From positions 96,001 to 160,000 of the IMG/VR virus record IMGVR_UViG_3300045988_154761: a DNA stretch of 64,000 nt; one strand, written 5' to 3'. The stretch is from a virus. Below are positions 489 through 23,440 of this stretch, piece by piece (within the stretch, counting starts at the first letter, position 1; each line of letters opens with the position of its first letter). The notes under the pieces are model-generated. The model saw nothing but the letters and a program-made list of their open reading frames with translations, did not search any database and was not told the DNA's origin. The position numbers and the translations under genes were made by a program.

Positions 489-610
489 TTGACACTCACA
501 GCAAATTTATTTTATGTTTTTGGAATAACGTCGTGTAAGGTTCGACTCCTTATTAACAAATCCCTTGAGCAAGGAATAGTTAACCGTGGATGGCTAGAAA
601 AAAGTGTCAA
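489..610 (+). ncRNA. ACAGCAA closing-helix RNA element, copy E1 (tRNA-mimic core)
   Basis: TTGACAC (489-495) pairs with GTGTCAA (604-610); ACAGCAA at 498-504; core has T-arm-like TAAGG-TTCGACT-CCTTA plus hairpins. Confidence 0.6.
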
Positions 611-623
611 GATTGCTCATTAT

Positions 624-714
624 GGAGTAGTAAGCCTAATTGGTAAGGCACCAGTTTGCTAAATTGGTAGTAGCTTGAAAGAGCGTACTGGTTCGAGTCC
701 AGTCTACTTCGCCA
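624..714 (+). tRNA. tRNA-Ser(GCT)
   Basis: acceptor GGAGTAG/CTACTTC, loop TTGCTAA, long variable arm, T arm ACTGG-TTCGAGT-CCAGT, G73, CCA. Confidence 0.85.
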
Positions 715-1540
715 CTAAATCCTTGAAAGAAAAAGTATAACAAGGACTTTCTTTTAAAAACACAGCAATGACCCGCCACCTTGTTTGTATAAGGGGAAAC
801 CTGTGAGTTATAGTTAAAAGGTCTATAACATTTATATCCCCATTAGTGTAATGGAGCATTCTCGTTAACTGATGTTGAGTAAACACTAAGGTAGCTCTTT
901 AGCGATAACAGCCACATTGGGAGAGGAAGTTGGTTCGAATCCAATTATAGGGTCCAGTAACTACGATACCGTCTTATAAAGATGGAAGTTCGCCTAACAG
1001 ATGGAGTATCGCTTAATGTTAGGATGTGTATATGGCGCAACTAAGTTCAGACCGTCCAGAACCTACAACCATATTAGCGGTGACAGCTTGGAGAGACAGC
1101 AAATATGCGGCAACTGGTGTAATAATAAAAGTAGCCATGGACAATATTTTTATTATGTTTGGAGTTCGATTCTTCTCTGCCGCTCCAAAAGACAGAATGG
1201 TTAGATATTTCTTGATGTCTTTTCAAAAAACAAGAAATCCGTAAGATATAGTACGAAACTTATCTTGGAATACAGTTTAGCTGGTTACAATGTATTCGAC
1301 ACTAAACCGCCCTCCAAGTCTGATGGACTGGTAACAATAGAAAGACCGCTGTTTACTCAATCGGGTGCGTTAAGCCCTTATACAATAAACAAGACTGATG
1401 ATGAAAATGACCAAGATAATTGGGTGCAAGTTTGCTGAAATATTTCTGTAGACCTCTCCCTAATCGAACCGAGGGCAGATAAGTGGAAAGCTGGTCTGTC
1501 AGTAATCATTAGTTCTTGTTTTATGTACCTTTAATAAGAA
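715..1540 (+). other. ORF-free, GC-elevated, hairpin-rich block (unclassified structured RNA candidates)
   Basis: only short spurious ORFs; many 6-7 bp hairpins (CCGTCTT/AAGATGG, CCTAACA/TGTTAGG, GAATACA/TGTATTC); an orphan tRNA-like D arm (~845) and T arm plus CCA (921-957) that I could not join into a tRNA. Confidence 0.3.
1088..1188 (+). ncRNA. ACAGCAA closing-helix element, divergent copy E12
   Basis: TTGGA (1088-1092) pairs with TCCAA (1184-1188); ACAGCAA at 1096-1102; second helix GCGGC (1107-1111)/GCCGC (1179-1183). Confidence 0.4.
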
Positions 1541-1561
1541 TAAAAATAAAAAGGTGTTTTT

Positions 1562-1882
1562 ATGGATTACATTGATAAGCAGTTTGCTAAACGTGGGTAT
1601 AAATTAGTACGTCAAAATGAATATGGCGCTTATTATGAAAGAAAAGATAATAAGTTTAATTATACAAGTGAACTTTGTATTATAGCTAAAGCAAATGGTA
1701 AACATCTTATTCAGTGTTATGATGCCCAAGTAGTTTATGGTCATCCTGAAAAGGATTCTAATAACTATCGTGTTATGAATCAAGTTGATGGAATTGATGC
1801 TTCTCTTTCTTTTTGGATTTGGTTAAAGTTTCATCAGCTTAAACACAAATATAAGTGGGATAAGGTGAAGAAACATGATTAA
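1562..1882 (+). CDS. hypothetical protein (106 aa)
   Basis: ATG preceded by AAAGGTG; overlaps the next gene by 8 nt. Confidence 0.7.
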   Translation: MDYIDKQFAKRGYKLVRQNEYGAYYERKDNKFNYTSELCIIAKANGKHLIQCYDAQVVYGHPEKDSNNYRVMNQVDGIDASLSFWIWLKFHQLKHKYKWDKVKKHD

Positions 1883-2147
1883 GAAATATATTAAGAAGCC
1901 AGTTACCATTGAAGCTATTATTTGGGATGGTGCTAATGAAACTGAAATTATGGAGTTCGTTGGTGCTCATTGCTGTGTTACTACTCAGCATACTATTAAT
2001 GGTACTGTAACTAATCTTATCATTAATACTCTTGAGGGAGACTATTATGCGTCTGTTGGCGATTATATCGTTAAGGGAATTAAAGGTGAGTTCTATCCTG
2101 TTAAACCTGATATCATGAAATTGACTTATGATGAGGTTATGGAGTAA
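1875..2147 (+). CDS. hypothetical protein (90 aa)
   Basis: ATG preceded by AAGGTGA; TAATG junction with the next gene. Confidence 0.7.
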   Translation: MIKKYIKKPVTIEAIIWDGANETEIMEFVGAHCCVTTQHTINGTVTNLIINTLEGDYYASVGDYIVKGIKGEFYPVKPDIMKLTYDEVME

Positions 2148-2563
2148 TGGATACTTCTTCATTTAAAATTATTGGTCATTATTCTATTTGTACTGGTGAA
2201 GTAGGCGAGTTTGAAACCAATGATATTTTAAAAGATAAAGAATTTAATTATTGGTATAAGAAAGATTCTGAAACTATTAAATATCCTTGGGAGTCTCGTA
2301 TCTTAGATGCTACTCAAGTTTGGACTAATGCTGATTGTTATCAAGATAGTACATCAGGTAAATGGATTTATAGATGTATTCCTTATGATGGTTTAATTTT
2401 TACTCTAGAAGCTAATTCTATGACAGAATTAGTAGAACTTATTAGAGATTTTGTTGAGCCTCCTGTAGAGGTTTTTGAAGAGCTTATTAAAAGTCAAAAT
2501 TATACAATTTTTGCTAATCATTTCAAAGAAGAAATTTCTAATAAAGACTTGACAAAGATTTAA
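2147..2563 (+). CDS. hypothetical protein (138 aa)
   Basis: translationally coupled start (TAATG); TAA stop. Confidence 0.7.
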   Translation: MDTSSFKIIGHYSICTGEVGEFETNDILKDKEFNYWYKKDSETIKYPWESRILDATQVWTNADCYQDSTSGKWIYRCIPYDGLIFTLEANSMTELVELIRDFVEPPVEVFEELIKSQNYTIFANHFKEEISNKDLTKI

Positions 2564-2577
2564 AAATATGGTAAGAT
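2549..2577 (+). promoter_or_regulatory. sigma70/sigmaA-like promoter
   Basis: TTGACA 2549-2554, 17 nt spacer, TGG-TAAGAT 2569-2577. Confidence 0.5.
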
Positions 2578-2661
2578 AAATACATCTTAAGAGAAGAGAA
2601 AAATAAAAATTTCTTAAAAATATAACAAGCAAAAAAGCAAAAAGAAAATTTTAATAAATGG

Positions 2662-2690
2662 TTGACATCTTAAAGATGATATGCTATAAT
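2662..2690 (+). promoter_or_regulatory. sigma70/sigmaA-like promoter driving E2 and tRNA-Glu
   Basis: TTGACA 2662-2667, 17 nt, TGC-TATAAT (2685-2690). Confidence 0.7.
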
Positions 2691-2722
2691 AAGTGCATAA
2701 ATAAAACCTCCTGAATAATAAA

Positions 2723-2840
2723 GTAGACTCTTACAGCAAATTCTTAAAAAGGTTAACACAATTGTCTTGAAAACAATCATTAGCGAGTTCGATTCTCGTC
2801 AGAGGGCGCTCTGTGGTGAATAATACGCAAAAGAGTCTAG
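2723..2840 (+). ncRNA. ACAGCAA closing-helix element, copy E2 (tRNA-mimic core)
   Basis: TAGACTCTT (2724-2732) pairs with AAGAGTCTA (2831-2839); ACAGCAA 2733-2739; core has anticodon-arm-like ATTGT-CTTGAAA-ACAAT, T arm GCGAG-TTCGATT-CTCGT and capped hairpin CAGAG-GGCG-CTCTG. Confidence 0.65.
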
Positions 2841-2852
2841 GCTAATTAATTT

Positions 2853-2928
2853 GGTCGGTTAGTCAAGTGGGCTAAGACACTGGCCTTTCACGTCAGTAGC
2901 ACGGGTTCGAACCCCGTACCGACTACCA
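2853..2928 (+). tRNA. tRNA-Glu(TTC)
   Basis: acceptor GGTCGGT/ACCGACT, loop CTTTCAC, T arm ACGGG-TTCGAAC-CCCGT, CCA. Confidence 0.85.
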
Positions 2929-3102
2929 TTATTCAAATCAGAAATCCATTCTTATGATAGTGAGAGTAAGTTTTATCGGATTTAAATGAGGGGAACTTAA
3001 ATCTATCGAAGGGTTAAGAAATAATTGTTTGACGAAAAGTTGTTTCTCCTTTCTCTCTATCTGAGATGAATAATTTCCTTTCTGTAAGATGATATTTATA
3101 AA

Positions 3103-3236
3103 GTAGAGACTAACAGCAATTTTGAAAATATGTTAAAAAGCCAAACTCCCATTCTTCGGTTCGAATCCGAACGTCTTCAGTTGAAGTATGTAGCCAAGTG
3201 GTTTAAGGCAGGAGTCCATAACAACAATGTCTCTAG
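3103..3236 (+). ncRNA. ACAGCAA closing-helix element, copy E3 (tRNA-mimic core)
   Basis: TAGAGAC (3104-3110) pairs with GTCTCTA (3229-3235); ACAGCAA 3113-3119; core T arm TTCGG-TTCGAAT-CCGAA and D-arm-like GCC-AAGTGGTTTAA-GGC. Confidence 0.6.
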
Positions 3237-3243
3237 TATTTAT

Positions 3244-3386
3244 GCTCGTGTAACTCAGTTGGCAGAGTAGCGGCCTTGATGGAGTAGTATAAGAAATATG
3301 TCCTGTAAAGGAAGATGTGAGTTCAAATCTCATTTTCATCACAATTAAGCCGTTTGTCGAGAGTTCGAATCTCTCCACGGGCACCA
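3244..3386 (+). tRNA. tRNA gene with a 67 nt insertion in the anticodon loop (identity unresolved; Lys, Thr or other)
   Basis: acceptor GCTCGTG/CACGGGC, D arm ACTC-AGTTGGCA-GAGT, anticodon stem GCGGC (3270-3274)/GCCGT (3349-3353) separated by 74 nt, T arm GAGAG-TTCGAAT-CTCTC, CCA. Confidence 0.6.
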
Positions 3387-3421
3387 ATAGCAGAAATGCT
3401 TATTTTGTAATGACTTCAATA

Positions 3422-3486
3422 GTAGATGCTTACAGCAATTTTAATTGTACTTATCTGTTAAATAAGAATACACAAAAAGCGTCTAT
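3422..3486 (+). ncRNA. ACAGCAA closing-helix element, copy E4 (short form)
   Basis: TAGATGCTT (3423-3431) pairs with AAGCGTCTA (3477-3485, one G:U); ACAGCAA 3432-3438; lies in the leader of the endonuclease gene. Confidence 0.6.
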
Positions 3487-3508
3487 CCCCTTTCTAAATG
3501 GAGGAATT

Positions 3509-3916
3509 ATGTAGATAGAAAATAATCGAGATAGAGGTAGAGCAGGATTAAGTTTAGCTATTGCTTATTTTGGTAGCAATGGTTATACTGTTAATCTTCC
3601 TATTAATGATACTCAATGGTATGATTTAGTAATTGAAAAAGATGGTAAATTTGAAACTGTTTAGTGTAAATTCACGGGAAGTAAAGAGAATGAAGTTAAC
3701 TTGACTTCTTGTGGTGGCACAAATGGTTCAAGATATGATTCAGTTTTAAATCATCCTTTAGATTGGTTATTTTGTGCGGATAAAGATAAAAATCTTTATC
3801 TGATTCCGATGGAAGATTTAAGAAAAGCTGGAAATACAAAAGCTATTTCTTTAAGAAAAGCTCCCAATTCTAATAAGCAAGGTTTTAATACTTATACTTA
3901 TTTGGTAGAAATTTAA
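3509..3916 (+). CDS. PD-(D/E)XK endonuclease of the group I intron-associated / homing type; 2 in-frame TAG
   Basis: ATG after GGAGGAA; TAG at codon 2 and at 3662-3664; motifs YDLVIEKDG and V-TAG-CK match the D...(E/Q)xK core. Confidence 0.7.
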
Positions 3917-3918
3917 AT

Positions 3919-4003
3919 GGGTGAGTAGTGAATCGGCAAACACGACAGACTGTAAATTTGTTTCCTAACGGAGTAGAAGGGTCGGCACCTTCCTCACCCA
4001 CCA
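3919..4003 (+). tRNA. tRNA-Tyr(GTA)
   Basis: acceptor GGGTGAG/CTCACCC, loop CTGTAAA, long variable arm, CCA; atypical T loop GTCGGCA. Confidence 0.75.
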
Positions 4004-4026
4004 ATAAAATTTTTGTTTTAAAACTC

Positions 4027-4055
4027 TTGACAAAATGAAAATCTTATGCTATAGT
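4027..4055 (+). promoter_or_regulatory. sigma70/sigmaA-like promoter driving E5, E6 and tRNA-Leu
   Basis: TTGACA 4027-4032, 17 nt, TGC-TATAGT (4050-4055). Confidence 0.7.
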
Positions 4056-4132
4056 AAAAATATGATAAAGATACAAATTTATTTGTAAGCTAATTGTTCA
4101 TTTTTTATTGTTCATAAAAGCATTCCTTTCAG

Positions 4133-4263
4133 GTAGACTCTAACAGCAACTTTACAATCACAAATGCTATGGGTCTGTTTGTTGGAGGTTCGAATCCTTC
4201 ACTCCCGACCATCGGGAGTTAGCTCAACGGATAGAGCAATAGATTTTGTAAAAATGAGTCTAG
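4133..4263 (+). ncRNA. ACAGCAA closing-helix element, copy E5, enclosing a circularly permuted tRNA-like body
   Basis: TAGACTC (4134-4140) pairs with GAGTCTA (4256-4262); ACAGCAA 4143-4149; order is TCTGT, variable region, T arm GGAGG-TTCGAAT-CCTTC, ACTCCCG-A-CCA-T-CGGGAGT, D arm GCTC-AACGGATA-GAGC, ATAGA. Confidence 0.65.
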
Positions 4264-4324
4264 TCAATAAATTAATAAATTGACGCTCCTATTTTTCTAA
4301 TAGGCAAATATAAATTCCTTTCAA

Positions 4325-4442
4325 GTAGACACGTACAGCAAAATTACTTGATGCTTTAATATGGAAAATTAACGATAAGGTTCGACTCCTTAATCTTCTT
4401 TGGAAGATGCGTGGTTGCTGGAAATCAAAAAACGTGTCTAGG
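4325..4442 (+). ncRNA. ACAGCAA closing-helix element, copy E6 (tRNA-mimic core, related to E1)
   Basis: TAGACACGT (4326-4334) pairs with ACGTGTCTA (4432-4440); ACAGCAA 4335-4341; T arm TAAGG-TTCGACT-CCTTA and capped hairpin ATCTTC-TTTG-GAAGAT. Confidence 0.65.
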
Positions 4443-4457
4443 TTAAGTATTAATTAT

Positions 4458-4542
4458 GCAGGATTGGCGGAATTGGCAGACGCGACGGATTCAAGTCCCG
4501 TTTCCTAATGGAGTAAGAGTTCAAGTCTCTTATCCTGCACCA
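4458..4542 (+). tRNA. tRNA-Leu(CAA)
   Basis: acceptor GCAGGAT/ATCCTGC, loop TTCAAGT, long variable arm, T arm AGAG-TTCAAGT-CTCT, CCA; A31:C39 mismatch. Confidence 0.8.
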
Positions 4543-4991
4543 TAGTCTTGATGATAGACTAACAAAACATCATCCCCCAACGCCCGTCCGAAGTCTTGGA
4601 GTAGAGAACAAGTGAATGGTTCTCGAACGCAAAGTAAGCTGTCATAAGCTGAAAAAGGCTATAAGCCGCACATGGGTAGAACACAGATATATGGTGAGAG
4701 ATGTTAGGGTGCGAATGTAACATCAAAAGCCTACAGCGAAAAGCTATACGGAGAAGTCTGTGCCGTGTTTACGGGAATAGGTGGTTGCGTACCTATTCAA
4801 ACAAAAACTCTGATTACTGCAACTAAATCGGGGTAGGTATTGAGGTTATGGGTCATATAACCTTAAAACACAATAAGCCGAGCATACTGCTTATTGCTCC
4901 TAACGGGTGGTGCTGAGGATGAACAACAAAAGCCAAGTTATAGAGTTCTTGTAAAAAACTCTGTTGCTATTTGAAAGAATAGCTCAATTAT
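4543..4991 (+). ncRNA. unclassified ~450 nt GC-rich structured spacer (U1) between complete tRNAs
   Basis: no ORF; many hairpins (ATGTTA/TAACAT, ATAGGT/ACCTAT, GGTTAT/ATAACC, ATAAGC/GCTTAT, AGAGTT/AACTCT, GCTATT/AATAGC). Confidence 0.35.
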
Positions 4992-5067
4992 GGGCCTGTA
5001 ACTCAGTTGGGAGAGTGTCTGCTTTGCACGCAGGAAGTCGCAAGTTCAAGTCTTGTCAGGTCCACCA
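4992..5067 (+). tRNA. tRNA-Ala(TGC)
   Basis: acceptor GGGCCTG/CAGGTCC with G3:U70, loop TTTGCAC, T arm TTCAAGT, CCA. Confidence 0.85.
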
Positions 5068-5521
5068 TAAGAGTTAGTTGCTCTCTTAGAATAAAAAGCA
5101 CCGTATTAACACAAGTTTACGATAATTAACTGGCCCTCGTCTGCGGGTAAACAGCAGTTTTAGGCTACTATAAGCCGAAGTTTTAAGGGCAGTTTCTTTA
5201 AAAAACATGCATATGGTTTTTCTTGTTATCTCTTTTTTATCCTAAAAATAAGACGTAGCAGCATGACTTGAGGCTATACATCAAGCTCCTGAGACCGAAG
5301 AAAAAAAGCTTCCTGTATGTCAATGGGAAAATAATCTATCTGTTTCTTAATAACAGGTGGGAGGGAGTATTTTAGGTCGGCAAGACCATGAGAGGATAGC
5401 GCTGTTCTCTCAACCCTTTGCAAAGGTTGCTGATGGGTTTTCCAAACGGATGTGGAAATTAAATGAATGGAAGGGTATAATTCAGCCCAAAATCAGCTCT
5501 AAAATTCAAGAAAATATATTT
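5068..5521 (+). ncRNA. unclassified ~450 nt structured spacer (U2)
   Basis: only a spurious 65-aa ORF; three-way junction GCCCT/AGGGC enclosing CTGC-GGGTAAACA-GCAG and GGCT-ACTATA-AGCC near 5140-5205. Confidence 0.3.
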
Positions 5522-5599
5522 GGGTGTGTAGTTCAGTCTGGTCAGAACACTTGACTGTTAATCAAGGAGTCGAAGGTTCAAATCCTTCCATACCCGCCA
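5522..5599 (+). tRNA. tRNA-Asn(GTT)
   Basis: acceptor GGGTGTG/CATACCC, loop CTGTTAA, T arm GAAGG-TTCAAAT-CCTTC, G73, CCA. Confidence 0.85.
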
Positions 5600-5952
5600 A
5601 AAGTGGAGAGTGTAGGTTCGAGTCCTGCCCCGCTCGTGGGAAACCCTTGCAGGAAGCTGTTAGGTACAGCGCCACTTAGAATTTCTTTCACCTTATTACG
5701 CGAAATATGGGATTGAGATGTTGCTTTAGTCGGGTTCTTTTACAGCAGAAAATAAGAACGCACCTGTTTAATTGGGTTTTTCAGTTCAGTAAAAACAAGA
5801 AAAACCTCGGTTGTTTAGAAATTTTCTTCTGATATTGAATGAAAACAAATAGAGAATTCTCTCATTGCAATGCCGAAAGGTAGTAAGTTACGAATTTACC
5901 CATGATAAATTACGAACTTGCTACCGAGTAGGGATAAGAGAGAATTAAACAT
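5600..5952 (+). ncRNA. unclassified ~350 nt structured spacer (U3)
   Basis: ORF-free; AAGTGG (5601-5606)/CCACTT (5672-5677) closes a 77 nt module; 10 bp stem GTAGTAAGTT/AACTTGCTAC; CC-GAAA-GG tetraloop hairpin. Confidence 0.3.
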
Positions 5953-6028
5953 GCTTTGGTAGCTCAATTGGTAGAGCAGTGGACTGAAAATCCACGTGTA
6001 GCCAGTTCAATTCTGGCCTAAAGCACCA
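5953..6028 (+). tRNA. tRNA-Phe(GAA)
   Basis: acceptor GCTTTGG/CTAAAGC, D arm GCTC-AATTGGTA-GAGC, loop CTGAAAA, T arm GCCAG-TTCAATT-CTGGC, CCA. Confidence 0.9.
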
Positions 6029-6029
6029 T

Positions 6030-6113
6030 TGCTGGCGAGTGAAACGGATATATAAATCACGCTTGGCTCATACCCAAGTAATAGTGGGTTCGACTCCCAT
6101 GCTTCAGCAACCA
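6030..6113 (+). tRNA. tRNA with CAT anticodon (Met or Ile2 type), irregular acceptor and oversized D loop
   Basis: anticodon arm CTTGG-CTCATAC-CCAAG, D stem GTGA/TCAC with 14 nt loop, T arm GTGGG-TTCGACT-CCCAT, CCA; acceptor needs a bulge or a mismatch. Confidence 0.55.
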
Positions 6114-6137
6114 AAAAACAAAAGGAAGTAAATTCTA

Positions 6138-6443
6138 ATGACTGATTTTAAGACTTACATTTATTAGACAGCAAGTAATAAAAAGTTTGTTTATAGATGT
6201 CCTCATTGTAATAAAGGGATAATGCAAGTAGCAGAAATTAAAACTGTTAAAGATGAAACTAATATTTTATCTTGGAATTATACTTGTCCAGTTTGTAAGA
6301 AACAAATGGTTTCTATTGAAAAAGATGGTTGTTCTTCTTTTAAAAGTGTGTTCCCTCCAATGACTCAAATTAGTGATAAAGAATTTACTGATATTAAAAA
6401 GGATGTAGGAGAAAAAGGTATCTATCTGTTCTCTGAAATATAA
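6138..6443 (+). CDS. small zinc-ribbon protein (101 aa), 1 in-frame TAG
   Basis: ATG 6138 after AAAGGAAG; TAG at codon 10; CPHC...CPVC; the track ORF 6222-6443 is its 3' part. Confidence 0.6.
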
Positions 6444-6450
6444 AATAAAT

Positions 6451-6545
6451 GCTAGCGTACAGAAGTGGTCATAACTGCCATCACTTGAAATGATGTGTGA
6501 CGGCTTGTATCCGTCTCGTGAGTTCGAATCTTACCGCTAGTGCCA
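6451..6545 (+). tRNA. tRNA-Ser(TGA)
   Basis: acceptor GCTAGCG/CGCTAGT, anticodon arm CATCA-CTTGAAA-TGATG, long variable arm, T arm GTGAG-TTCGAAT-CTTAC, G73, CCA. Confidence 0.85.
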
Positions 6546-6565
6546 TTAAAAACGGAGTCTTTAAT

Positions 6566-6769
6566 ATGAAAATCTGGAATGGAAATGATTTTGAATATCT
6601 TGGTTATTTTGTAAAAAACAACAAGAAAGCTAAATATTTTGAGGTTTTTGACAAGAATGGCAATCTTCTTTTTAGACAAACTAATTGGGGTCATGCTTGT
6701 GTGACTTCAGTTAAACATAAGATTGAAGACTTTCATAAAAAATATAGACAGGAGATAAAAAATGAGTAA
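6566..6769 (+). CDS. hypothetical protein (67 aa)
   Basis: first ATG downstream of tRNA-Ser; the longer track ORF (6497) would overlap the tRNA. Confidence 0.6.
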   Translation: MKIWNGNDFEYLGYFVKNNKKAKYFEVFDKNGNLLFRQTNWGHACVTSVKHKIEDFHKKYRQEIKNE

Positions 6770-7277
6770 TAATAATTCAATCGAAATCGAACGTAAGTTT
6801 TTAATTTCTGGTTTTCCTAAAGTTGATTTTGACGAAGTTGGAATTGTTAAAACTATTTATATTAATATCAAATATAATTCTGATGGAAAAATTTTACAGG
6901 AAATTCGTATAAGACGTTGGTTTGAAAGTGGCAAAGGTTATCGTCCAGATACTCTTACTTTCAAATCTGGTGGTACTTTAACTCGCACTGAAATTGAAAC
7001 AAATCTTACAGATAATTCTTTGTTTGACTGTTTTAATGAACTTGGTTATAATCCTATTGTAAAAGATTATAGAGGTCTTTACAATAATGGTTATTTAATT
7101 GAATTCAATCTTGTAGATGGTGGAAGTGAGACTGCTTTCTATTATGCCGAAGTTGAATTCAATTCTGAGGAAGAAGCCAATAGTTTTGTTTGGCCTTTTC
7201 CTGAAGTATTTATTGAGGAAGTTACTAATAAGCCTGAATACAAAATGGCGAATTATTGGAAACGTACTCGTGGATAA
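6762..7277 (+). CDS. CYTH-domain (triphosphate tunnel metalloenzyme) protein
   Basis: N-terminal IEIERKFLI (ExExK signature) and YYAEVEF near the C-terminus. Confidence 0.75.
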   Translation: MSNNNSIEIERKFLISGFPKVDFDEVGIVKTIYINIKYNSDGKILQEIRIRRWFESGKGYRPDTLTFKSGGTLTRTEIETNLTDNSLFDCFNELGYNPIVKDYRGLYNNGYLIEFNLVDGGSETAFYYAEVEFNSEEEANSFVWPFPEVFIEEVTNKPEYKMANYWKRTRG

Positions 7278-7301
7278 GGACTATTATTTAGTCCTTTATT
7301 T
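7277..7301 (+). terminator. intrinsic terminator-like hairpin
   Basis: AGGACT/AGTCCT stem followed by TTTATTT. Confidence 0.5.
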
Positions 7302-7377
7302 GCTGGATTAGTTCAGTTGATAGAACGTATGATTTGTAATCATAATGTCAGGGGTTTGAGTCCCTTATCCAGCTCCA
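7302..7377 (+). tRNA. tRNA-Thr(TGT)
   Basis: acceptor GCTGGAT/ATCCAGC, anticodon arm TATGA-TTTGTAA-TCATA, T arm AGGGG-TTTGAGT-CCCTT, CCA. Confidence 0.85.
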
Positions 7378-7414
7378 TGAACTTTTTTATAAAATAAAAA
7401 AGAGGATTTTTATT

Positions 7415-7606
7415 ATGGACGAATTTTTAATCTCCGAAATCTTTGAGCTGATTAAAACTTTAAAGAAAGACAAGTATACCAAGTATACCATGAAAGATGT
7501 TAATACCATTTGCGATTTGCTTGGTATTGAATTATTTTGGTATCAAAAGTTTGTTCTTCTTCGTCAGCTTAATGATAAAAATTATATGAGGTATATATGC
7601 CGATAA
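7415..7606 (+). CDS. hypothetical protein (63 aa)
   Basis: ATG after AAAGAGGA; overlaps the next gene by 10 nt. Confidence 0.6.
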   Translation: MDEFLISEIFELIKTLKKDKYTKYTMKDVNTICDLLGIELFWYQKFVLLRQLNDKNYMRYICR

Positions 7607-7866
7607 GAAACGGAAACAATGATATTTATAGTGACATTTTCTTCCAATATTTGAATGAGAATGAAGAGAAGATGATTAATGAAACCGCTTCTAAGATGGA
7701 AGAACGAAATCCGATTCTTTATCCTAAAGATGTTTCAGTAGCAATTTTGAAATCCATCTATAGTGATTATAAGAAATATCTTTATGAGCACGGATATACT
7801 TTTAAGAAAGAATACTTAGAAGAATACTTTAAAAATTTATCAGAAGAAATTTTAAAAAGTACTTGA
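7597..7866 (+). CDS. hypothetical protein (89 aa)
   Basis: track ORF; its TGA stop lies inside the next promoter -35. Confidence 0.65.
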   Translation: MPIRNGNNDIYSDIFFQYLNENEEKMINETASKMEERNPILYPKDVSVAILKSIYSDYKKYLYEHGYTFKKEYLEEYFKNLSEEILKST

Positions 7867-7891
7867 CAAGATGATGAGTATGTGGTATACT
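7863..7891 (+). promoter_or_regulatory. sigma70/sigmaA-like promoter ahead of tRNA-Arg and tRNA-Gln
   Basis: TTGACA 7863-7868, 17 nt, TGG-TATACT (7886-7891). Confidence 0.7.
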
Positions 7892-7932
7892 TAAGATGTA
7901 GTTGAGATAAGAAATAAGTAAATCTTTGATAT

Positions 7933-8007
7933 GTGGACGTAGTTTAATGGCTAAAACGGTGGCCTCCGGTTCCGCAGATAGGGTTTCGATTACCCCCGTC
8001 CACTCCA
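7933..8007 (+). tRNA. tRNA-Arg(CCG)
   Basis: acceptor GTGGACG/CGTCCAC, loop CTCCGGT, T loop TTCGATT, CCA; one mismatch each in the anticodon and T stems. Confidence 0.7.
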
Positions 8008-8058
8008 GAAAAACAAATGTCTCTCTCTTGTAGACAGACAAGATTTCCTTTTTTGTGT

Positions 8059-8165
8059 ACTTCGTGGTGGTAACAGTACGATAAATAAAATAAGCCATGT
8101 CCTGTCGGACTCAGAAATGAGATGGATGTCCTCTGTGGAGAATCGGGATTCAGGGGCGAAGTACA
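8059..8165 (+). ncRNA. unclassified ~107 nt structured element between tRNA-Arg and tRNA-Gln
   Basis: 8 bp closing helix GTACTTCG (8059-8066)/CGAAGTAC (8158-8165); internal hairpins GTCC-TGTC-GGAC and CCAT...ATGG. Confidence 0.35.
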
Positions 8166-8172
8166 AAAATAT

Positions 8173-8246
8173 TGAGCATTAGAATAATGGTAGTTCATTA
8201 GGCTTTGACCCTAATGGTGGGGGTTCGAATCCCTCATGCTCAGCCA
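8173..8246 (+). tRNA. tRNA-Gln(TTG)
   Basis: acceptor TGAGCAT/ATGCTCA (U1:A72), anticodon arm TTAGG-CTTTGAC-CCTAA, G73, CCA. Confidence 0.85.
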
Positions 8247-8260
8247 ATTAAAGGAGATAT

Positions 8261-9232
8261 ATGGATATTTTAATTGATTAGTACACAAAAGAAGAGTTAT
8301 AGCAAATTTTAAATAATAGTTCTTCTTATTCTGACGCTTTAAGAAAATTAGGATATAATTCTACATCAAACGCTAATCGTCGGCATTTAAAGAGAATTAT
8401 AAAAGAAAAAAACTTAGAAGTTAATTTTCTTCCAAAGACATACATAAAGAAATTATCTGATGAAGAAATTTTCAAAGAAGATTCTCATGTTAGTTAGAGT
8501 TGTGTGCGAGAACATTTTTTAGCTTTAAATATAGTTGAGTATAAATGTTCTATATGTGGATAGGAACCGTTTTGGAATGGAAAACCTTTAACTTTAACAT
8601 TAGACCACATTAATGGTAAAAACCGAGATAACAGACTTGATAATTTAAGGTGGGTTTGTCCTAATTGCGATAGATAGCTTCCTATTTTTGGGCGGAAAAA
8701 TAAAACAGAGTTAAAAAAGAAGAAGTTAAAAAAATTTGATTTGGTAAAAAACAACAAACCAAAATCTTACAAAAAATATTTTAAAATTTACAAAGATAAC
8801 AAAAGATTTTGTTTGGGTTGTGGAAAAGAAATTACCAATAATTCTCTATATTGTTTTGATTGTGCTAATAAGCATAGAAGAAAACAAAAAGATAGACCAA
8901 CCAAAGAAGAGTTAGAAAAAATGTTAAAAGAAGAAAAGGGTAATTTTTCAAAAATAGCTAACCAATTTGGTATTTCTGATAATGCAGTTAGAAAATGGTG
9001 TAATAATTATGGTTTATCCTGTAAATCATCTGCTTATAAAGCACCAAAAAAAGAAAAACAACAACGAATTGAGAAACCTGTAAAGCAATTAGATTTAAAT
9101 GGTAATTTAATTAAAAGCTATTCTTCTATTAATCAAGCTTATGTTGAAACTAAAATAGAGCATATTTCTCAATGTGCGAACGGGTTAAGGAAAACAGCTC
9201 GGGGTTATAATTGGGAATTTGAAAAAGATTAA
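8261..9232 (+). CDS. HNH homing endonuclease with C-terminal HTH/NUMOD-like modules; 5 in-frame TAG
   Basis: ATG after AAGGAGA; frame checked end to end (TAG only); LDHINGKNRDNRLDNLRWVCPNCDR-TAG-LP; the track ORF 8741-9232 is its 3' part. Confidence 0.8.
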
Positions 9233-9251
9233 AAATTTTTTAACAATTAAC

Positions 9252-9373
9252 GTAGACGCTTACAGCAAACAATAATAAAATCAAATTCTATTAAAAAAGA
9301 TTTAGGGTATTGTTCCTTGCTAATTAGTTTATGATGCTTTCATGATTCTCCTTTGTTAGTATTATGCGTCTAG
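9252..9373 (+). ncRNA. ACAGCAA closing-helix element, copy E7
   Basis: TAGACGC (9253-9259) pairs with GCGTCTA (9366-9372); ACAGCAA 9262-9268; no T arm in the core. Confidence 0.55.
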
Positions 9374-9380
9374 TTTATAA

Positions 9381-9447
9381 GTGCCGTACCAAGGTTGGAG
9401 TCACTCGACGGAGGGCTTAAGAAGGGGTTCGAATCCCCCACGGTGCA
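9381..9447 (+). ncRNA. tRNA-like fragment (acceptor-like stem plus T arm, no foldable D or anticodon arms, no CCA)
   Basis: GTGCCGT/ACGGTGC stem and GGGG-TTCGAAT-CCCC; the middle 36 nt do not fold as a cloverleaf. Confidence 0.3.
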
Positions 9448-9503
9448 AGATTGAATTGTTTGGAGTACTACAAACAAGATGGTAAGTTATTGATGATTTA
9501 AAA

Positions 9504-9568
9504 GTAAACCCTTACAGCAATTTAACTATTTAATTTTTGCTTGAAAAAAGATTAAGGATAGGGTTTAG
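9504..9568 (+). ncRNA. ACAGCAA closing-helix element, copy E8 (short form)
   Basis: TAAACCCT (9505-9512) pairs with AGGGTTTA (9560-9567); ACAGCAA 9514-9520. Confidence 0.55.
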
Positions 9569-9584
9569 TCCTGTAATGTTGAAA

Positions 9585-9671
9585 GTAGACACTAACAGCA
9601 ATTAAAATAAAAATACTGGGAAATATATTTAATTGGAATAAATACTTTTTTAGATTTTTAAAGTGTCTAGG
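9585..9671 (+). ncRNA. ACAGCAA closing-helix element, copy E9 (short form)
   Basis: TAGACAC (9586-9592) pairs with GTGTCTA (9663-9669); ACAGCAA 9595-9601. Confidence 0.6.
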
Positions 9672-9680
9672 ATTTTATAT

Positions 9681-9816
9681 GGGGATGTATCTCAATTGGT
9701 CAGAGGGCCCGACTTATGTTTTAGTAGTTTAAAAGTAAAACTTTTAATGCAAGTGCAAGACTTGTCTAAAACACCAAATCGGGAAGTTGAGTGTTCGAGC
9801 CACTCCATTCCCACCA
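9681..9816 (+). tRNA. tRNA gene with a 59 nt insertion in the anticodon loop (Ile-UAU if excised at 37/38)
   Basis: acceptor GGGGATG/CATTCCC, D arm TCTC-AATTGGTCA-GAGG, anticodon stem CCCGA (9708-9712)/TCGGG (9779-9783) separated by 66 nt starting CTTATG, T arm GAGTG-TTCGAGC-CACTC, CCA. Confidence 0.65.
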
Positions 9817-9837
9817 ACGGTAGCAAATTCAAATAAA

Positions 9838-9907
9838 GTAGACTCTTACAGCAATTACTTAGAGACTTGTGATTTGGGATTACATATGTTTTGAAAAATG
9901 AGTCTAG
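9838..9907 (+). ncRNA. ACAGCAA closing-helix element, copy E10 (short form)
   Basis: TAGACTC (9839-9845) pairs with GAGTCTA (9900-9906); ACAGCAA 9848-9854. Confidence 0.6.
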
Positions 9908-9915
9908 CTTTATTA

Positions 9916-9992
9916 GCGCCTGTAGTCTAATTGGATAAAACCGCACTCTTCTAAAGTGTATCTTATGAGTTCGAATCTCGTCAGGCGTGCCA
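9916..9992 (+). tRNA. tRNA-Arg(TCT)
   Basis: acceptor GCGCCTG/CAGGCGT, anticodon arm GCACT-CTTCTAA-AGTGT, T arm ATGAG-TTCGAAT-CTCGT, CCA. Confidence 0.8.
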
Positions 9993-10018
9993 ATGAAGTT
10001 TCAAACTTCATTTAATTT
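9993..10018 (+). terminator. intrinsic terminator-like hairpin
   Basis: ATGAAGTT-TCA-AACTTCAT followed by a T-rich tract. Confidence 0.55.
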
Positions 10019-10022
10019 ATTA

Positions 10023-19021: not shown

Positions 19022-19047
19022 TTAGTTACTCGAAAGGAGAGATGATT

Positions 19048-20517: not shown

Positions 20518-20519
20518 AA

Positions 20520-21896: not shown

Positions 21897-22464
21897 AAAC
21901 GTATTTGAAACTAATTCAAGTTCTTGCCATTCTCTTGTTATTTCAAAGGATAATTATGGTTCAGAACATATTCCAGCTTATTTAAATTTTAATGCAGATG
22001 AAGATTATGGTTGGGACACACGTTGCTACTCTTCCACAGAAGATAAGGCTTCTTATCTTTACACCGCCATGCTTAATTGTGATATGTTTGCTCAAGCGAA
22101 AGATTTTAAGCGTAAACTTGAAGAAGATTTTAAGATTAAAATTTTCGTTCCAGCCTATAAAAGAGAAAAAAGTACATATGGTGGTTGGGAATTTTGGGAT
22201 AATGGCGGTTCTGTAGACCATGCAGGAGAACTTGTTCCCTTCATTAATGAAATTCTTGAAGATGATGACAAGTTAAAGCGTTTTCTTTTCGACCCAAGAA
22301 GTTGTATTTATACTGGCAATGATAATGGTTGCGACCCTGATGATAATTGTTATGTTGCTGATGCAGATGAAAATGGCGAATATTACGATTGGCGCACCGA
22401 AAAAAATATTAAGCATCCTCTTTGGGACGGAGAACATTATGAATATTACTTTAAGGGGAATTAA
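21880..22464 (+). CDS. FETNSSS-family protein, paralog 4
   Basis: ATG 21880 after GGAGGA; MKQIRKNVFETNSSSCHSLVI; GGSVDHAG. Confidence 0.75.
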   Translation: MKQIRKNVFETNSSSCHSLVISKDNYGSEHIPAYLNFNADEDYGWDTRCYSSTEDKASYLYTAMLNCDMFAQAKDFKRKLEEDFKIKIFVPAYKREKSTYGGWEFWDNGGSVDHAGELVPFINEILEDDDKLKRFLFDPRSCIYTGNDNGCDPDDNCYVADADENGEYYDWRTEKNIKHPLWDGEHYEYYFKGN

Positions 22465-22466
22465 TA

Positions 22467-22841
22467 ATGACTAATACAGGTGATTATCATCCCGTTAAAG
22501 GGTATTGCAATGAAAAAGGCATTTGGTGTGAATATGCCAATATTAGAGGGTATTGTAGCTTAACTGCATGTTTAAAGCACAATCCTGTTCAATTGAATAA
22601 CGCATCTGATTTCAGCTTAAATTTTTCTCGCTCTGAAAAATCTAAGATGTTTGTTAAATTTGAGCTAAAAGAATTTAACATGGAGAAAAATTTCGATGAT
22701 ACAGTTAATTTAAATTTTACTCTACCTATTGTAAATCAGGATTCTAATGAAGAAACTGGTACTTTAAAAGTAAAAATTCCTCGTGCTAAATATGAATTCG
22801 AGGAAGGTGGAATTAAAATTTCTGTTTTAAAATCTGAGTAA
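22467..22841 (+). CDS. hypothetical protein (124 aa) with Cys-rich N-terminus
   Basis: CNEKGIWCEYANIRGYCSLTAC. Confidence 0.65.
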   Translation: MTNTGDYHPVKGYCNEKGIWCEYANIRGYCSLTACLKHNPVQLNNASDFSLNFSRSEKSKMFVKFELKEFNMEKNFDDTVNLNFTLPIVNQDSNEETGTLKVKIPRAKYEFEEGGIKISVLKSE

Positions 22842-22842
22842 A

Positions 22843-22870
22843 GGGTATAACTGGGTATAAAAGGGTATAA
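22843..22870 (+). repeat. three direct GGGTATAA repeats at exact 10 bp spacing
   Basis: copies at 22843-22850, 22853-22860 and 22863-22870, immediately upstream of ATG 22873. Confidence 0.8.
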
Positions 22871-22872
22871 TT

Positions 22873-23343
22873 ATGGTTGATATTAAGTGGCTTTAGACTC
22901 AAGAAGGATAGAAAGCTTATTAGACTTGGATAAGAAAGTTAGCAAATCGAGCAGAAGATAGAACAGATATTCCAATTTTAGTAGACACCAATGGAGAAAT
23001 TTAGGTTTGGGTAACAATAAATAAAAAATATCTATCTAAAGAGCAATTTGAAAAACTTTCTGACAAATCTGATGGTGAAATTACTACAAAATTAGAATTT
23101 AAAACAAAAGATATTATTATAAGAGAGCTTACTTCTATTGCAAAAAGTAGAGATGCTTTAGCGGATAATGAAGATGAAAGAGAACTTTTATGTCCCCTCG
23201 TTTCATTGTTTCAGGGAATAGAAGATGCTATTACTAATGATATTTGCTATAAAGCTCAAAATGCTAAACAGCTTTTTATAAACAATTTCGAAAAAAATTT
23301 AGGAAAAGACGAAAATAATTCTAATAACCTCTTGACAAACTAA
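22873..23343 (+). CDS. hypothetical protein (156 aa), 4 in-frame TAG
   Basis: frame checked line by line; TAG at codons 8, 13, 17 and 44; TAA stop at 23341-23343. Confidence 0.55.
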
Positions 23344-23360
23344 GATACATCTGTTATAGT
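23332..23360 (+). promoter_or_regulatory. sigma70/sigmaA-like promoter
   Basis: TTGACA 23332-23337, 17 nt, TGT-TATAGT (23355-23360). Confidence 0.7.
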
Positions 23361-23378
23361 ATCTATTGTCATAAGTAG

Positions 23379-23440
23379 TTAGACTCTCACAGCAAACTAC
23401 AAAAAACTTTTATTTTGAAAAAAGGACAAAAAGAGTCTAG
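23379..23440 (+). ncRNA. ACAGCAA closing-helix element, copy E11, in the 5' leader of the vWA protein gene
   Basis: TAGACTCT (23380-23387) pairs with AGAGTCTA (23432-23439); ACAGCAA 23389-23395. Confidence 0.6.

Follow-up and report, generated by a model that had tools for sequence, protein, structure and literature searches.

The window (the whole 64,000-nt stretch of viral DNA analysed here) contains a repeated element in which a helix formed by two distant arms adjoins the heptamer ACAGCAA, and it raises the question of what these repeats are. Our results show that the twelve copies are genuine structured RNAs of small size, with the appearance of RNA partners for a Ro60-like ring protein that the same phage encodes.

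Twelve small structured RNAs in the window

ACAGCAA occurs 22 times in the window, compared with 8.3±3.1 times in shuffled sequences (none of 100 shuffles reached 22); 15 occurrences are on the + strand and seven on the − strand. A motif was regarded as closed when a 7-nt arm ending 2 nt before it was complementary to a partner arm 50–230 nt downstream. A closing helix was present at 12 of the 15 + strand motifs and at none of the seven − strand motifs. In 11 closed copies the arms are Watson–Crick-paired at 7/7 positions and one copy has a single G·U. A scan of the window for additional copies with one mismatch in ACAGCAA yielded none. The twelve copies of the original prediction were thereby confirmed, with coordinates agreeing to within 1 nt; 11 are clear and one (1088) is divergent. 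Their common anatomy is a closing helix of 7–9 bp, 0–2 nt, the invariant ACAGCAA, a variable cargo of 30 to 110 nt between the arms and an A-rich stretch preceding the 3′ arm. Scores below refer to the covariance model R1.

488..611, + strand: copy 1; arms TTGACACT (489-496) and AGTGTCAA (603-610), ACAGCAA at 498-504; T-arm-like hairpin TAAGG TTCGACT CCTTA as cargo; flanked by tRNA-Val and tRNA-Ser; partial R1 match (21 bits)
1086..1319 (or to 1189), + strand: copy 2, divergent; arm CTTGGAG (1087-1093), ACAGCAA at 1096-1102; 3′ arm ambiguous (CTCCAAG at 1312-1318 or CTCCAA at 1183-1188); T-arm-like cargo GAGTTCGATTC
2723..2840, + strand: copy 3; arms TAGACTCTT and AAGAGTCTA; anticodon-arm-like hairpin ATTGT CTTGAAA ACAAT, T arm and closed mini-acceptor hairpin
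3103..3236, + strand: copy 4; arms TAGAGAC and GTCTCTA; T arm (TTCGG TTCGAAT CCGAA), hairpin and D-arm-like segment
3422..3486 (65 nt), + strand: copy 5; arms TAGATGC and GCGTCTA, one G·U (perfect arms in the L065 orthologue); anticodon-arm-like hairpin CTTAT CTGTTAA ATAAG; R1 49.8 bits
4133..4263, + strand: copy 6; arms TAGACTC and GAGTCTA, second helix TTTACAA/TTGTAAA; YrlA-like permuted tRNA-like domain of T arm, closed acceptor (ACTCCCGA CCA TCGGGAGT) and D arm; fold z-score −4.8
4325..4441, + strand: copy 7; arms TAGACACGT and ACGTGTCTA; T arm (TAAGG TTCGACT CCTTA) and closed acceptor-like hairpin
9252..9373, + strand: copy 8; arms TAGACGC and GCGTCTA; AT-rich cargo without a tRNA-like arm
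9504..9568 (65 nt), + strand: copy 9; arms TAAACCCT and AGGGTTTA; R1 44.5 bits
9585..9670, + strand: copy 10; arms TAGACACT and AGTGTCTA; inner helix TTAAAAT/ATTTTTAA starting directly 3′ of ACAGCAA; R1 33.8 bits (E 5e-6), outside the R1 training set
9838..9907 (70 nt), + strand: copy 11; arms TAGACTC and GAGTCTA; R1 46.9 bits; immediately 5′ of tRNA-Arg (9916)
23379..23440 (62 nt), + strand: copy 12; arms TAGACTCT and AGAGTCTA; hairpin loop with CUUUUA; R1 53.6 bits
2662-2690, + strand: sigma-70-type promoter with extended −10 (12/12 match), driving copy 3
4027-4055 and 23333-23361, + strand: similar promoters before copies 6 and 12

Membership of copy 2 in the family is uncertain, and R1 does not detect it. 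Several tRNAs of the window carry insertions.

In minimum free energy folds the closing helix formed in all copies. ACAGCAA, which had been predicted to remain unpaired beside it, was indeed unpaired in nine of 11 copies; in those at 4325 and 9252 it paired partly with an internal UUGCUG or UUGCU. A position about 30 nt downstream of strong promoters, originally ascribed to several copies, applies to two of them (2723 and 23379), which start 33 nt after the −10 and 18 nt after the −10 (23356-23361), respectively; copy 6 (4133) lies 78 nt after its promoter.

The closing helix varies with its complementarity preserved

All complementary variable bases that had been listed for the window were found (TCTT/AAGA, ACGT/ACGT, GC/GC, ACT/AGT, TAAACCCT/AGGGTTTA and TTGACACT/AGTGTCAA), and the compensating helix was borne out far beyond the window: 126 distinct copies from many phages contained 60 different 7-nt arms. 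Arm sequences are wholly different between lineages yet complementary (TAGACTCT, ATGCCT, AAGACAC, AAGGCAC, GAGACGC, GGGGCGC, TGGACCC and TAGGAAT). On the 5′ strand of the consensus, the helix is followed by NN-ACAGCAA-WUUU. The helix (WAGRCRC/GYGYCUW), 7–8 bp long in the constant module and formed by both ends of the RNA, is semi-conserved. Its closing opposition consists of a 3′ G, conserved in 89% of the 126 copies, that faces a purine or U; this 5′ partner is A, U or G and never C. The postulated G–G opposition is therefore not found at every copy, the 5′ base being T at 23379 and the 3′ base T at 3486. Because the copies were selected by complementarity, counts for the seven core pairs are circular. 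Non-circular support comes from the strand, control and enrichment contrasts, from R1 matches in genomes outside the training set and from the eighth pair, which was not used in selection and was paired in 28 of 52 cases with six pair types. The module is thus a conserved RNA structure.

The module is linked to a gene for a Ro60-like protein

Directly after the last copy lies the gene for the RNA family's putative protein partner:

23463-25181, + strand: gene for a Ro60-like protein of 572 aa (Pfam DUF2828 and DUF7788/vWA)

Copy 12 is situated in the leader of this gene, ~10 nt before the ribosome-binding site, and its position is conserved in relatives; the other 11 copies are 13–23 kb away. 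The protein combines a helical domain (DUF2828) with a vWA domain (DUF7788) that contains a MIDAS motif, and residues D348, S350, S352, T420 and D452 are invariant. Its structure model, of moderate confidence (pLDDT 67, TM about 0.4), predicts a Ro60-like fold. The top eight Foldseek matches in the PDB (E about 2e-6 over some 600 aligned columns) were all Ro60 proteins, which came from Xenopus, human and Thermus phage phiLo. Only Ro60 was matched over the full length, lower PDB matches being confined to the vWA domain. BFVD matches included TROVE and 'Ro-like' phage proteins, and 12 of 31 homologues matched Pfam vWA_Ro60; Pfam TROVE was not matched by the window protein even at E ≤10. Mycobacteriophage homologues are already annotated as 'Ro-like RNA binding protein' in GenBank.

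Homologues of this gene are bordered, on their own strand, by helix plus ACAGCAA in about 75 metagenomic phage loci, in bacterial MAGs and in six of six cultured phages examined (Bacillus PK-3, Listeria LP-064, Staphylococcus 6ec, Mycobacterium Finnry, Felix-O1-like UAB_Phi87 and KVP40). In 81 loci around gene homologues (1.63 Mb), 171 of 413 ACAGCAA motifs on the gene strand were closed by the helix, compared with five of 118 on the opposite strand. Scanning with a covariance model, as had been suggested, detected independent copies: R1 found ten in 6ec, PK-3, LP-064 and Finnry (E=3e-5 to 2e-9), none of them in its training set and all abutting the gene on its strand, with different other neighbour genes. 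The GTDB genome loci gave 18 matches, all on the + strand and flanking the gene. No match was obtained in 97 control viral loci without a detected homologue; the only matches of the control set were in L047, which encodes a homologue flanked by copies, and in L036. The linkage of RNA and protein gene is hence tight and strand-specific across unrelated phages.

We favour, with a probability of about 0.7, a Y-RNA-like family in which helix and ACAGCAA would dock the Ro60-like protein while the cargo presents tRNA mimics. Alternatively, the module could be a cis-acting leader or operator at which a regulator, possibly the Ro60-like protein itself, controls translation, stability or antitermination downstream, rather than part of stable trans-acting RNAs. 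The leader position of copy 12 agrees with this, as do the strong promoters before two or three window copies and the 55% of closed copies in other phages that lie ≤400 nt upstream of the gene (at least one such copy in 60 of the 81 loci). However, the copies of Finnry, 6ec and UAB_Phi87 are downstream of the gene, others form tandem arrays of three to four or lie inside tRNA clusters without a downstream ORF, and neither the tRNA-arm mimicry of the cargoes nor a permuted form embedded in tRNA-like genes fits a leader. We consider purely cis-acting copies unlikely; autoregulation by the gene-proximal copy alone is compatible with the Y-RNA-like reading.

The cargoes mimic tRNA arms

Of 126 cargoes, 43 contained a stem of 5 bp with a YU...R loop of 7 nt (3.3 in shuffles). 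Interiors are freely exchangeable, their length running from 8 nt (L120) to over 100 nt, and several cargoes have no tRNA-like part. In other phages, a circularly permuted module forms a hairpin that takes the anticodon position in tRNA-like genes, which score 47–53 bits with the Rfam tRNA model. Felix-O1-like phages and Listeria phages have tRNA arrays adjoining the gene, and LP-064 encodes both RtcB and an RNA ligase in its vicinity.

These embedded modules, together with RtcB near the LP-064 homologue and the insertions in window tRNAs, could mean that the module acts in split or permuted tRNA genes as an intron-like or end-joining signal, excised before the ends are ligated (e.g. by RtcB) into functional tRNAs or circular RNAs. 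Copy 6, in which a T arm, ACTCCCG-A-CCA, one spacer nucleotide, CGGGAGT and a D arm follow each other, resembles a permuted tRNA with encoded CCA. However, a closed acceptor whose loop has 3 nt is normal YrlA architecture, and about half of the copies have only a hairpin or no tRNA part. Folds of L173, L181 and L167, parsed by eye, gave no recoverable 7-nt U33/R37 anticodon loop; ARAGORN, with introns allowed, called none of the embedded genes in L173, L167, L181, L163 and L151; and a scan of roughly 30 window ORFs revealed no splicing endonuclease. Such a signal is distinctly unlikely.

It is barely probable that the module is a site at which long tRNA or non-coding transcripts are processed by an endoribonuclease of host or phage that has nothing to do with the Ro60-like protein. 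Many copies do lie between tRNAs on one strand, and the single-stranded A/U-rich flanks beside the stem presumably resemble RNase E/Y-type sites. This would leave unexplained the strand-matched adjacency to the DUF2828 gene in 6ec and Finnry, where no tRNA array adjoins the copies, and the absence of matches from the control loci. Moreover, ACAGCAA is exactly conserved across hosts as diverse as Mycobacterium, Listeria, Salmonella and Clostridia, which argues for a phage-encoded reader.

A small self-cleaving ribozyme, the other comparison originally proposed, is highly improbable. The element is compact, closed by a helix and present in many copies in transcribed non-coding regions, and its unpaired motif is short and invariant; however, no Rfam ribozyme family matched at E ≤1, the element is unlike any known self-cleaving fold, and beyond ACAGCAA and the semi-conserved helix it has no conserved core. 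Least probable of all is a DNA-level repeat without RNA function (a recombination, homing or protein-binding site, or MITE-like), for although the element is multicopy, ends in inverted repeats and has homing-endonuclease genes nearby, closed copies are strictly strand-biased (171 versus five), G·U wobble is tolerated on the RNA strand, arm changes compensate around unrelated cargo, the terminal G–purine mismatch is conserved, the motif is on one arm only and a permuted hairpin form exists.

Relationship to Y RNAs

The original prediction did not assign the element to any named RNA family, and Rfam 15 contains none for it. The comparison with Y RNA/YrlA that the prediction proposed proved productive, with a YrlA-like interior in copy 6 and a Ro60-like gene adjoining the last copy. 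Copy 6, the only one of the 12 window copies to match Rfam YrlA, aligned to all 114 model positions, including the AAUGCU block, with 40.6 bits (E 2.7e-6 over 11 kb, 5e-8 over 201 nt), which is below the gathering score of 69. The known Ro60-contact motifs GGUCCGA, GNCGAAN0-1G and CGAA are absent from the copies.

The closest known system is that of bacterial YrlA/Y RNAs with the Ro60 orthologue Rsr (RF02553; Chen et al. 2014, PMC4201824). It shares small non-coding RNAs beside the gene of a ring-shaped HEAT and vWA protein, pairing of 5′ and 3′ ends with a short conserved 5′-strand motif beside the stem, and, in each genome, variable modular RNAs, some with a tRNA-like domain. Unlike YrlA, the phage RNAs have ACAGCAA instead of GNCGAAN0-1G, a far higher copy number (12), many cargoes that are bare anticodon-arm-like hairpins and a non-permuted form with the module at the anticodon position of a tRNA-like gene; the phage protein is DUF2828/DUF7788 without a TROVE match. 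In Thermus phage phiLo, Y-RNA-like genes (Yrl1/Yrl2) likewise lie directly upstream of the gene for a phage-encoded Ro60-type protein (PMC12135203; PDB 9L5Y, 9KOP), which was identified as a Ro60 homolog by UniProt search and is one of the best structural matches to the window protein. The phiLo Yrl RNAs carry CGAA in a large internal bulge (PMC12135203); protein family and RNA motif differ here, and the RNA–protein partnership is putative. Metazoan Y RNAs with Ro60 (PDB 1YVP) also have a terminal stem from both ends; Ro60 contacts mainly the 5′ strand of a conserved helix with a bulge, the variable loop region being an effector module (PMC4201824). Their GGUCCGA has no sequence similarity to ACAGCAA and they lack tRNA mimicry. 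Permuted and intron-containing tRNA genes (e.g. in Cyanidioschyzon merolae; reviewed in PMC4090602) share the order T arm, acceptor, D arm with copy 6 and long insertions at the anticodon position with related phages, but here no bulge–helix–bulge or recoverable anticodon loop was seen, and most copies have no tRNA halves.

Although the family would operate in the manner of Ro60/Y RNA, it lacks the known Y RNA motif and stays below the Rfam threshold. We infer that each small non-coding RNA combines a constant module, helix plus ACAGCAA, as docking site for the ring protein of 23463-25181, with a variable cargo that displays tRNA-like parts, be they hairpins like an anticodon arm, T arms or an entire permuted tRNA domain of YrlA type. 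By analogy with Ro60/Y RNA particles, the RNA may gate the ring protein or tether it to tRNA-binding or RNA-degrading/repair enzymes during infection. We found this pairing of RNA and Ro60-like protein described nowhere in Rfam or the searchable literature, and the module together with the Ro60-like gene recurs in many cultured phages.

Twelve copies of an ACAGCAA RNA element in the window

The window is a piece of a large phage genome and contains ACAGCAA 22 times, compared with 8.3±3.1 expected from dinucleotide shuffles. Fifteen of the 22 motifs are on the + strand, and in 12 of these 15 a 7-nt arm ends 2 nt 5′ of ACAGCAA and has its complement 50-230 nt downstream. No closure of this kind was found for the seven motifs on the - strand of the window. 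The arms of the 12 copies were perfectly Watson-Crick complementary in 11 cases and contained a single G.U pair in one. Hereafter, the closing helix formed by the RNA's two ends together with NN-ACAGCAA is termed the module and the variable sequence between the arms the cargo. A window scan that allowed one motif mismatch yielded no additional copies.

Copies of the element (each recognized by arm complementarity plus ACAGCAA) and the adjoining gene in the window
488-611, + strand: copy 1
1086-1319, + strand: copy 2, divergent, 3′ arm ambiguous
2723-2840, + strand: copy 3
3103-3236, + strand: copy 4
3422-3486, + strand: copy 5, single-hairpin cargo
4133-4263, + strand: copy 6, YrlA-like interior
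4325-4441, + strand: copy 7
9252-9373, + strand: copy 8
9504-9568, + strand: copy 9
9585-9670, + strand: copy 10
9838-9907, + strand: copy 11
23379-23440, + strand: copy 12, upstream of the Ro60-like ORF
23463-25181, + strand: Ro60-like ORF, 572 aa, Pfam DUF2828 and DUF7788, weakly VWA_2

In minimum-free-energy folds the closing helix formed in all 12 copies and ACAGCAA was unpaired in most. An inner helix between WUUU and the A-rich strand was frequent, its register not being constant. The original prediction of a twelve-copy family with a covarying closing helix and an unpaired ACAGCAA proved accurate, with minor caveats. The window promoters are of the sigma-70 type, and three strong ones precede copies 3, 6 and 12.

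In the predicted folds of copies 7 (4325-4441) and 8 (9252-9373), an internal UUGCUG or UUGCU can base-pair with the copy's own CAGCAA, which may mask the motif intramolecularly or be due to chance. A thirteenth noncoding + strand ACAGCAA (762-768), between tRNA-Ser and a tRNA-like gene at 838-956, is without a convincing closing helix and may be a decayed copy.

The module is linked to the DUF2828 gene in other genomes

The Ro60-like ORF starts 23 nt 3′ of copy 12. In a phage with a 57%-identical protein, the gene leader reads ATGCCT-AC-ACAGCAA-CTTATAAGAA-AGGCAT; motif and architecture are the same as in the window copies and the helix sequence is unrelated. A first pattern scan of viral contigs for AGTAGAC-N2-5-ACAGCAA was discarded, as it gave mostly chance single matches; the only real cases were in L065 (a contig closely related to the window) and in the contig loci L036 and L047. 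The one gene common to all module contexts was the DUF2828 gene.

We counted motifs in 81 metagenomic loci around protein homologues (1.63 Mb). The gene strand carried 413 ACAGCAA, 171 of them with a closing helix, and the opposite strand 118, of which five were closed. Of the closed copies, 55% were located ≤400 nt upstream of the gene; such a copy was present in 60 of the 81 loci. Among cultured phages, copies flanked the homologue in six of the six checked. The 126 distinct copies have 60 distinct 7-nt arms and the consensus N-[WAGRCRC]-NN-ACAGCAA-WUUU ... A-rich-[GYGYCUW]-G, in which the 3′ G is kept in 89% and the opposing 5′ base is never C. Complementarity of the seven core pairs was the selection criterion, so their pair counts are circular and were not used as proof. 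The eighth pair, which lies outside the copy selection, was paired in 28 of 52 distinct copies in a gapless alignment, with six pair types.

A covariance model of the module (R1) was trained on 47 short copies and is biased toward short cargoes. In the window it recovered the untrained copy 10 (9583-9672; E 5e-6), gave partial matches of 17-21 bits to six long-cargo copies and missed copy 2. In cultured phages, none of which was used in training, R1 found ten copies (E = 3e-5 to 2e-9) in Staphylococcus phage 6ec, Bacillus phage PK-3, Listeria phage LP-064 and Mycobacterium phage Finnry. All ten directly adjoin the gene, on its strand; the remaining neighbour genes differ. In 45 bacterial genome or MAG loci R1 had 18 matches (E < 0.01), each adjoining the gene and on its strand. 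As controls we used 99 viral loci (0.88 Mb), each chosen for containing AGTAGAC-N-ACAGCAA. R1 matched only L047 and L036 among these, and L047 encodes a homologue flanked by copies.

Felix-O1-like phages differ from the other copies in reading NCAGCAA instead of ACAGCAA: UAB_Phi87 has four such copies just downstream of the gene, within a tRNA array. KVP40 has one copy, in a tRNA region. The Finnry copies (6432-6700) follow the gene annotated as 'Ro-like RNA binding protein' and overlap gene 55 (6493-6708), annotated as a hypothetical protein; this ORF call may be spurious. For mycobacteriophage LeBron, a small protein (gp54) beside the Ro-like gp53 has been reported to be highly toxic (PMC13148394).

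The adjoining gene encodes a protein that is Ro60-like by fold

The protein has more than 4900 metagenome homologues, and tblastn detected homologues in 695 GenBank phage records, including Felix-O1-like, KVP40, Listeria, Staphylococcus, Campylobacter, Enterococcus and Bacillus phages and mycobacteriophages; part of these are already annotated as 'Ro-like RNA binding protein'. A 97%-identical protein is encoded on a 123-kb contig binned as 'uncultured Clostridium sp. UMGS1616'. Searches of PDB sequences using phmmer with the protein and hmmsearch with the profile gave no match; fold comparison alone succeeded. With a structure model from 31 homologues (AlphaFold2, pLDDT 67), Foldseek returned exactly eight PDB matches at E < 0.001, all of them Ro60 (Xenopus, human and Thermus phage phiLo), aligned over ~600 columns with E about 2e-6 and TM about 0.4. 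The matches ranking after Ro60 covered the vWA domain alone. Across the 31 homologues the MIDAS residues DxSxS...T...D are invariant, 12 match Pfam vWA_Ro60 (PF25045), and none matches Pfam TROVE at E <= 10. The model indicates the architecture of Ro60, in which a ring domain of helical repeats precedes a MIDAS-bearing vWA domain. Because a Ro60 fold match coincides with no TROVE sequence match, we call the modelled product of ORF 23463-25181 Ro60-like by fold and not a canonical TROVE member. The closest fold relatives of the DUF2828/vWA protein in BFVD include giant-virus proteins (Pithovirus, Marseillevirus, Mimiviridae, CroV), and papers mentioning DUF2828 place the family also in plants.

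Some cargoes resemble tRNA arms, and the module occurs in a permuted form

A 5-bp stem with a 7-nt YU...R loop was present in 43 of 126 terminal-stem cargoes, compared with 3.3 in shuffles (maximum 8). Both T loops (UUCGAAU and similar) and anticodon-like loops (CUUUUAA, CUUGAAA, CUGUUAA and others) contribute to this excess. Loops recurring across unrelated phages were CUUUUAA (Lys), CUGUUAA (Asn), CUUGAAA (Ser) and CUGUAAA (Tyr), and the Lys-like CUUUUAA loop occurred in 8/36 distinct gene-proximal copies versus 3/102 other copies. Within the window, T arms are found in copies 1-4, 6 and 7. Copy 3 combines its T arm with an anticodon-arm-like hairpin, and the cargo of copy 5 is an anticodon-arm-like hairpin (CUUAU-CUGUUAA-AUAAG). 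A full tRNA-like domain (T arm, closed acceptor, D arm) is present in copy 6 and none in copies 5 and 8-12.

In a permuted form found in other phages, the helix is closed by a small loop and located directly 5′ of ACAGCAA, for example GTGTCTTG-GGAA-AGACG-TAA-ACAGCAA. Its helix has a semi-conserved sequence and a terminal G/purine as in the terminal-stem form, and 52 cases were on the gene strand versus eight on the opposite strand. Permuted hairpins are located at the anticodon position in tRNA-like genes, which carry inserts of 45-60 nt and reach 47-53 bits against the Rfam tRNA model. Thus, the module has two possible placements. It can form the RNA's terminal stem, the arrangement of the window copies and of YrlA, or it can be an internal hairpin that takes the place of a tRNA-like RNA's anticodon loop.

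The tRNA region of the window

tRNAs and ncRNAs are densely packed in bases 1-10400; there are 13-17 tRNAs, some of which have insertions. A near-identical region is present on the 179-kb contig IMGVR_UViG_3300045988_153385 (L065); megablast of bases 2600-10400 against GenBank phages gave no match. The tRNA at 9681-9816 (Rfam, 49.5 bits) has a 57-59 nt insertion without the ACAGCAA module in its anticodon loop, placed by eye after position 37 of the CUUAUG... loop; a group I intron was ruled out, the insertion being far too short. The tRNA gene at 3244-3386 is split by a 67-nt insert (inner 3278-3341) that is itself a tRNA match (39.9 bits). The same place in L065 (5975-6050) has an uninterrupted tRNA with a CUUUUAA loop, and a tRNA-like unit appears to have entered the anticodon loop of the window tRNA recently. 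ARAGORN -i called another tRNA-like gene at 838-956 with an insertion of 46 nt, and this gene is not among the Rfam matches.

ARAGORN with introns allowed also called a tRNA with anticodon CUA (amber suppressor) at 10025-10329, interrupted by a 219-nt insert. This tRNA fits the in-frame TAG codons of some ORFs, namely 3509-3916 (two), 8261-9232 (five), 10421-11410 (seven), 25191-26477 (six), 49025-50041 (three) and 49983-51392 (six). The TAG-containing ORFs are mostly homing-endonuclease-like (PD-(D/E)XK, HNH-like, GIY-YIG), and most remaining ORFs have no in-frame TAG. Inter-tRNA spacers of 160-450 nt (4543-4991, 5068-5521, 5600-5952 and 8008-8172) are higher in G+C and have neither an ORF nor an Rfam match; spacer 4543-4991 folds better than 100/100 shuffles (z = -3.3). 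These spacers may be large structured RNAs of a new kind or intron remnants.

Comparison with Y RNAs and other known families

The original prediction recognized no named RNA family in the element, and this was borne out: Rfam 15 had no matching family, either for the whole window at gathering thresholds or for bases 1-11000 at E <= 1. The sole related signal was YrlA (RF02553), which matched the interior of copy 6 at 40.6 bits, below its gathering score of 69, and none of the remaining window copies at E <= 1. In the copy 6 interior a T arm is followed by a closed acceptor hairpin and a D arm, the arrangement of the permuted tRNA-like domain of bacterial Y RNAs. In Ro60/Y RNA and Rsr/YrlA the genes adjoin each other, and the RNA has paired ends, a tRNA-like domain and a motif conserved on its 5′ strand (PMC4201824).

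The likeness to Y RNA and YrlA that the original prediction proposed to check held in part. All copies have paired ends and, on the 5′ strand next to the stem, a conserved motif (7-8 bp helix plus NN-ACAGCAA), and the element adjoins a gene as Y RNAs adjoin that of a Ro60 orthologue, although the protein here is Ro60-like by fold and not canonical TROVE. The likeness failed at the RF02553 threshold and at the Ro60-contact motifs GGUCCGA / GNCGAAN0-1G / CGAA, which are missing; the invariant ACAGCAA is present instead, and copy 6 reads CACAAAUG at the position aligned to the YrlA motif. Because the contact motif, the Rfam threshold and the TROVE test all failed, we do not assign the RNA to the described families. 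It appears to work like Y RNA/YrlA and to represent a new form of the Ro60/Y RNA kind. Ro60 of Thermus phage phiLo with Yrl1/2 is a parallel phage system (PMC12135203). The searchable literature yielded no description of an RNA partner of the DUF2828/Ro-like phage protein. Already known are the principle of Ro60/Y RNA and the 'Ro-like' label in some GenBank annotations; new are the wide occurrence, the presence of 12 copies in one genome, the repertoire of tRNA-arm cargoes and the two permuted architectures.

Interpretation

The best-supported reading of these comparisons is a Y-RNA-like RNA family. The helix and ACAGCAA would be the recognition module bound by the Ro60-like protein, and the cargo would be a variable effector module mimicking tRNA, possibly gating the ring or tethering it to exoribonucleases, tRNA enzymes or repair enzymes.

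Two features suggest an intron or permuted-tRNA signal, namely the order of parts in copy 6 (T arm, ACTCCCG-A-CCA, CGGGAGT, D arm) and the module embedded in tRNA-like genes. However, half of the copies are without tRNA halves, and a canonical 7-nt anticodon loop (U33, R37) could not be restored in folds parsed by eye for the phage loci L173, L181 and L167. In five loci scanned, ARAGORN with introns allowed did not call the module-bearing tRNA-like genes. Because an anticodon loop could not be restored, a permuted tRNA in copy 6 and intron-bearing tRNAs in the embedded forms were dropped as the main reading. A purely cis-regulatory leader is contradicted by copies downstream of the gene, tandem arrays and copies within tRNA clusters; the Ro60-like gene may be autoregulated via copy 12. 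A generic RNase site would leave the linkage of module and gene unexplained. Ribozyme families, another proposed comparison, gave no match in the Rfam search of bases 1-11000 at E <= 1 and of the whole window at gathering thresholds (hammerhead, twister, pistol, hatchet, HDV-like and others), and the element lacks a conserved ribozyme core. Strand bias, accepted G.U pairs and compensatory changes exclude a DNA-level repeat.

Returning to the Y-RNA-like reading, the genomic context hints at tRNA surveillance or repair, since tRNA arrays adjoin the gene in several phages, RtcB and an RNA ligase are encoded near it in LP-064, and LeBron encodes an RNA ligase and PNK alongside its Ro-like gp53, which is moderately toxic when overexpressed (PMC13148394). 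Pfam scans of ~30 ORFs of the 64-kb window found no RtcB, RNA ligase or PNK. It is conceivable, if rather unlikely, that the Ro60-like protein and the ACAGCAA RNAs form an RNP that presents mimics of tRNA anticodon and T arms and either decoys or captures host defence nucleases targeting tRNA, or recruits repair enzymes (RtcB, RNA ligase/PNK) to damaged tRNAs. Such a particle would be a counter-defence machine encoded alongside phage tRNA arrays.

Ro60/Y RNA particles are conserved from bacteria to humans and their function is poorly defined. If the proposed binding is true, the Ro60-like proteins of Pfam DUF2828, a large and so far unstudied branch, would gain a cognate RNA family, and Ro-type particles would thereby be tied to phage tRNA arrays and tRNA mimicry. 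The RNA family accounts for unannotated or mis-annotated intergenic DNA beside DUF2828 genes, for example in Finnry. Helix and ACAGCAA constitute a simple, mutable signature, and the pairing of protein and RNA yields hypotheses that can be tested in genetically tractable phage-host pairs.
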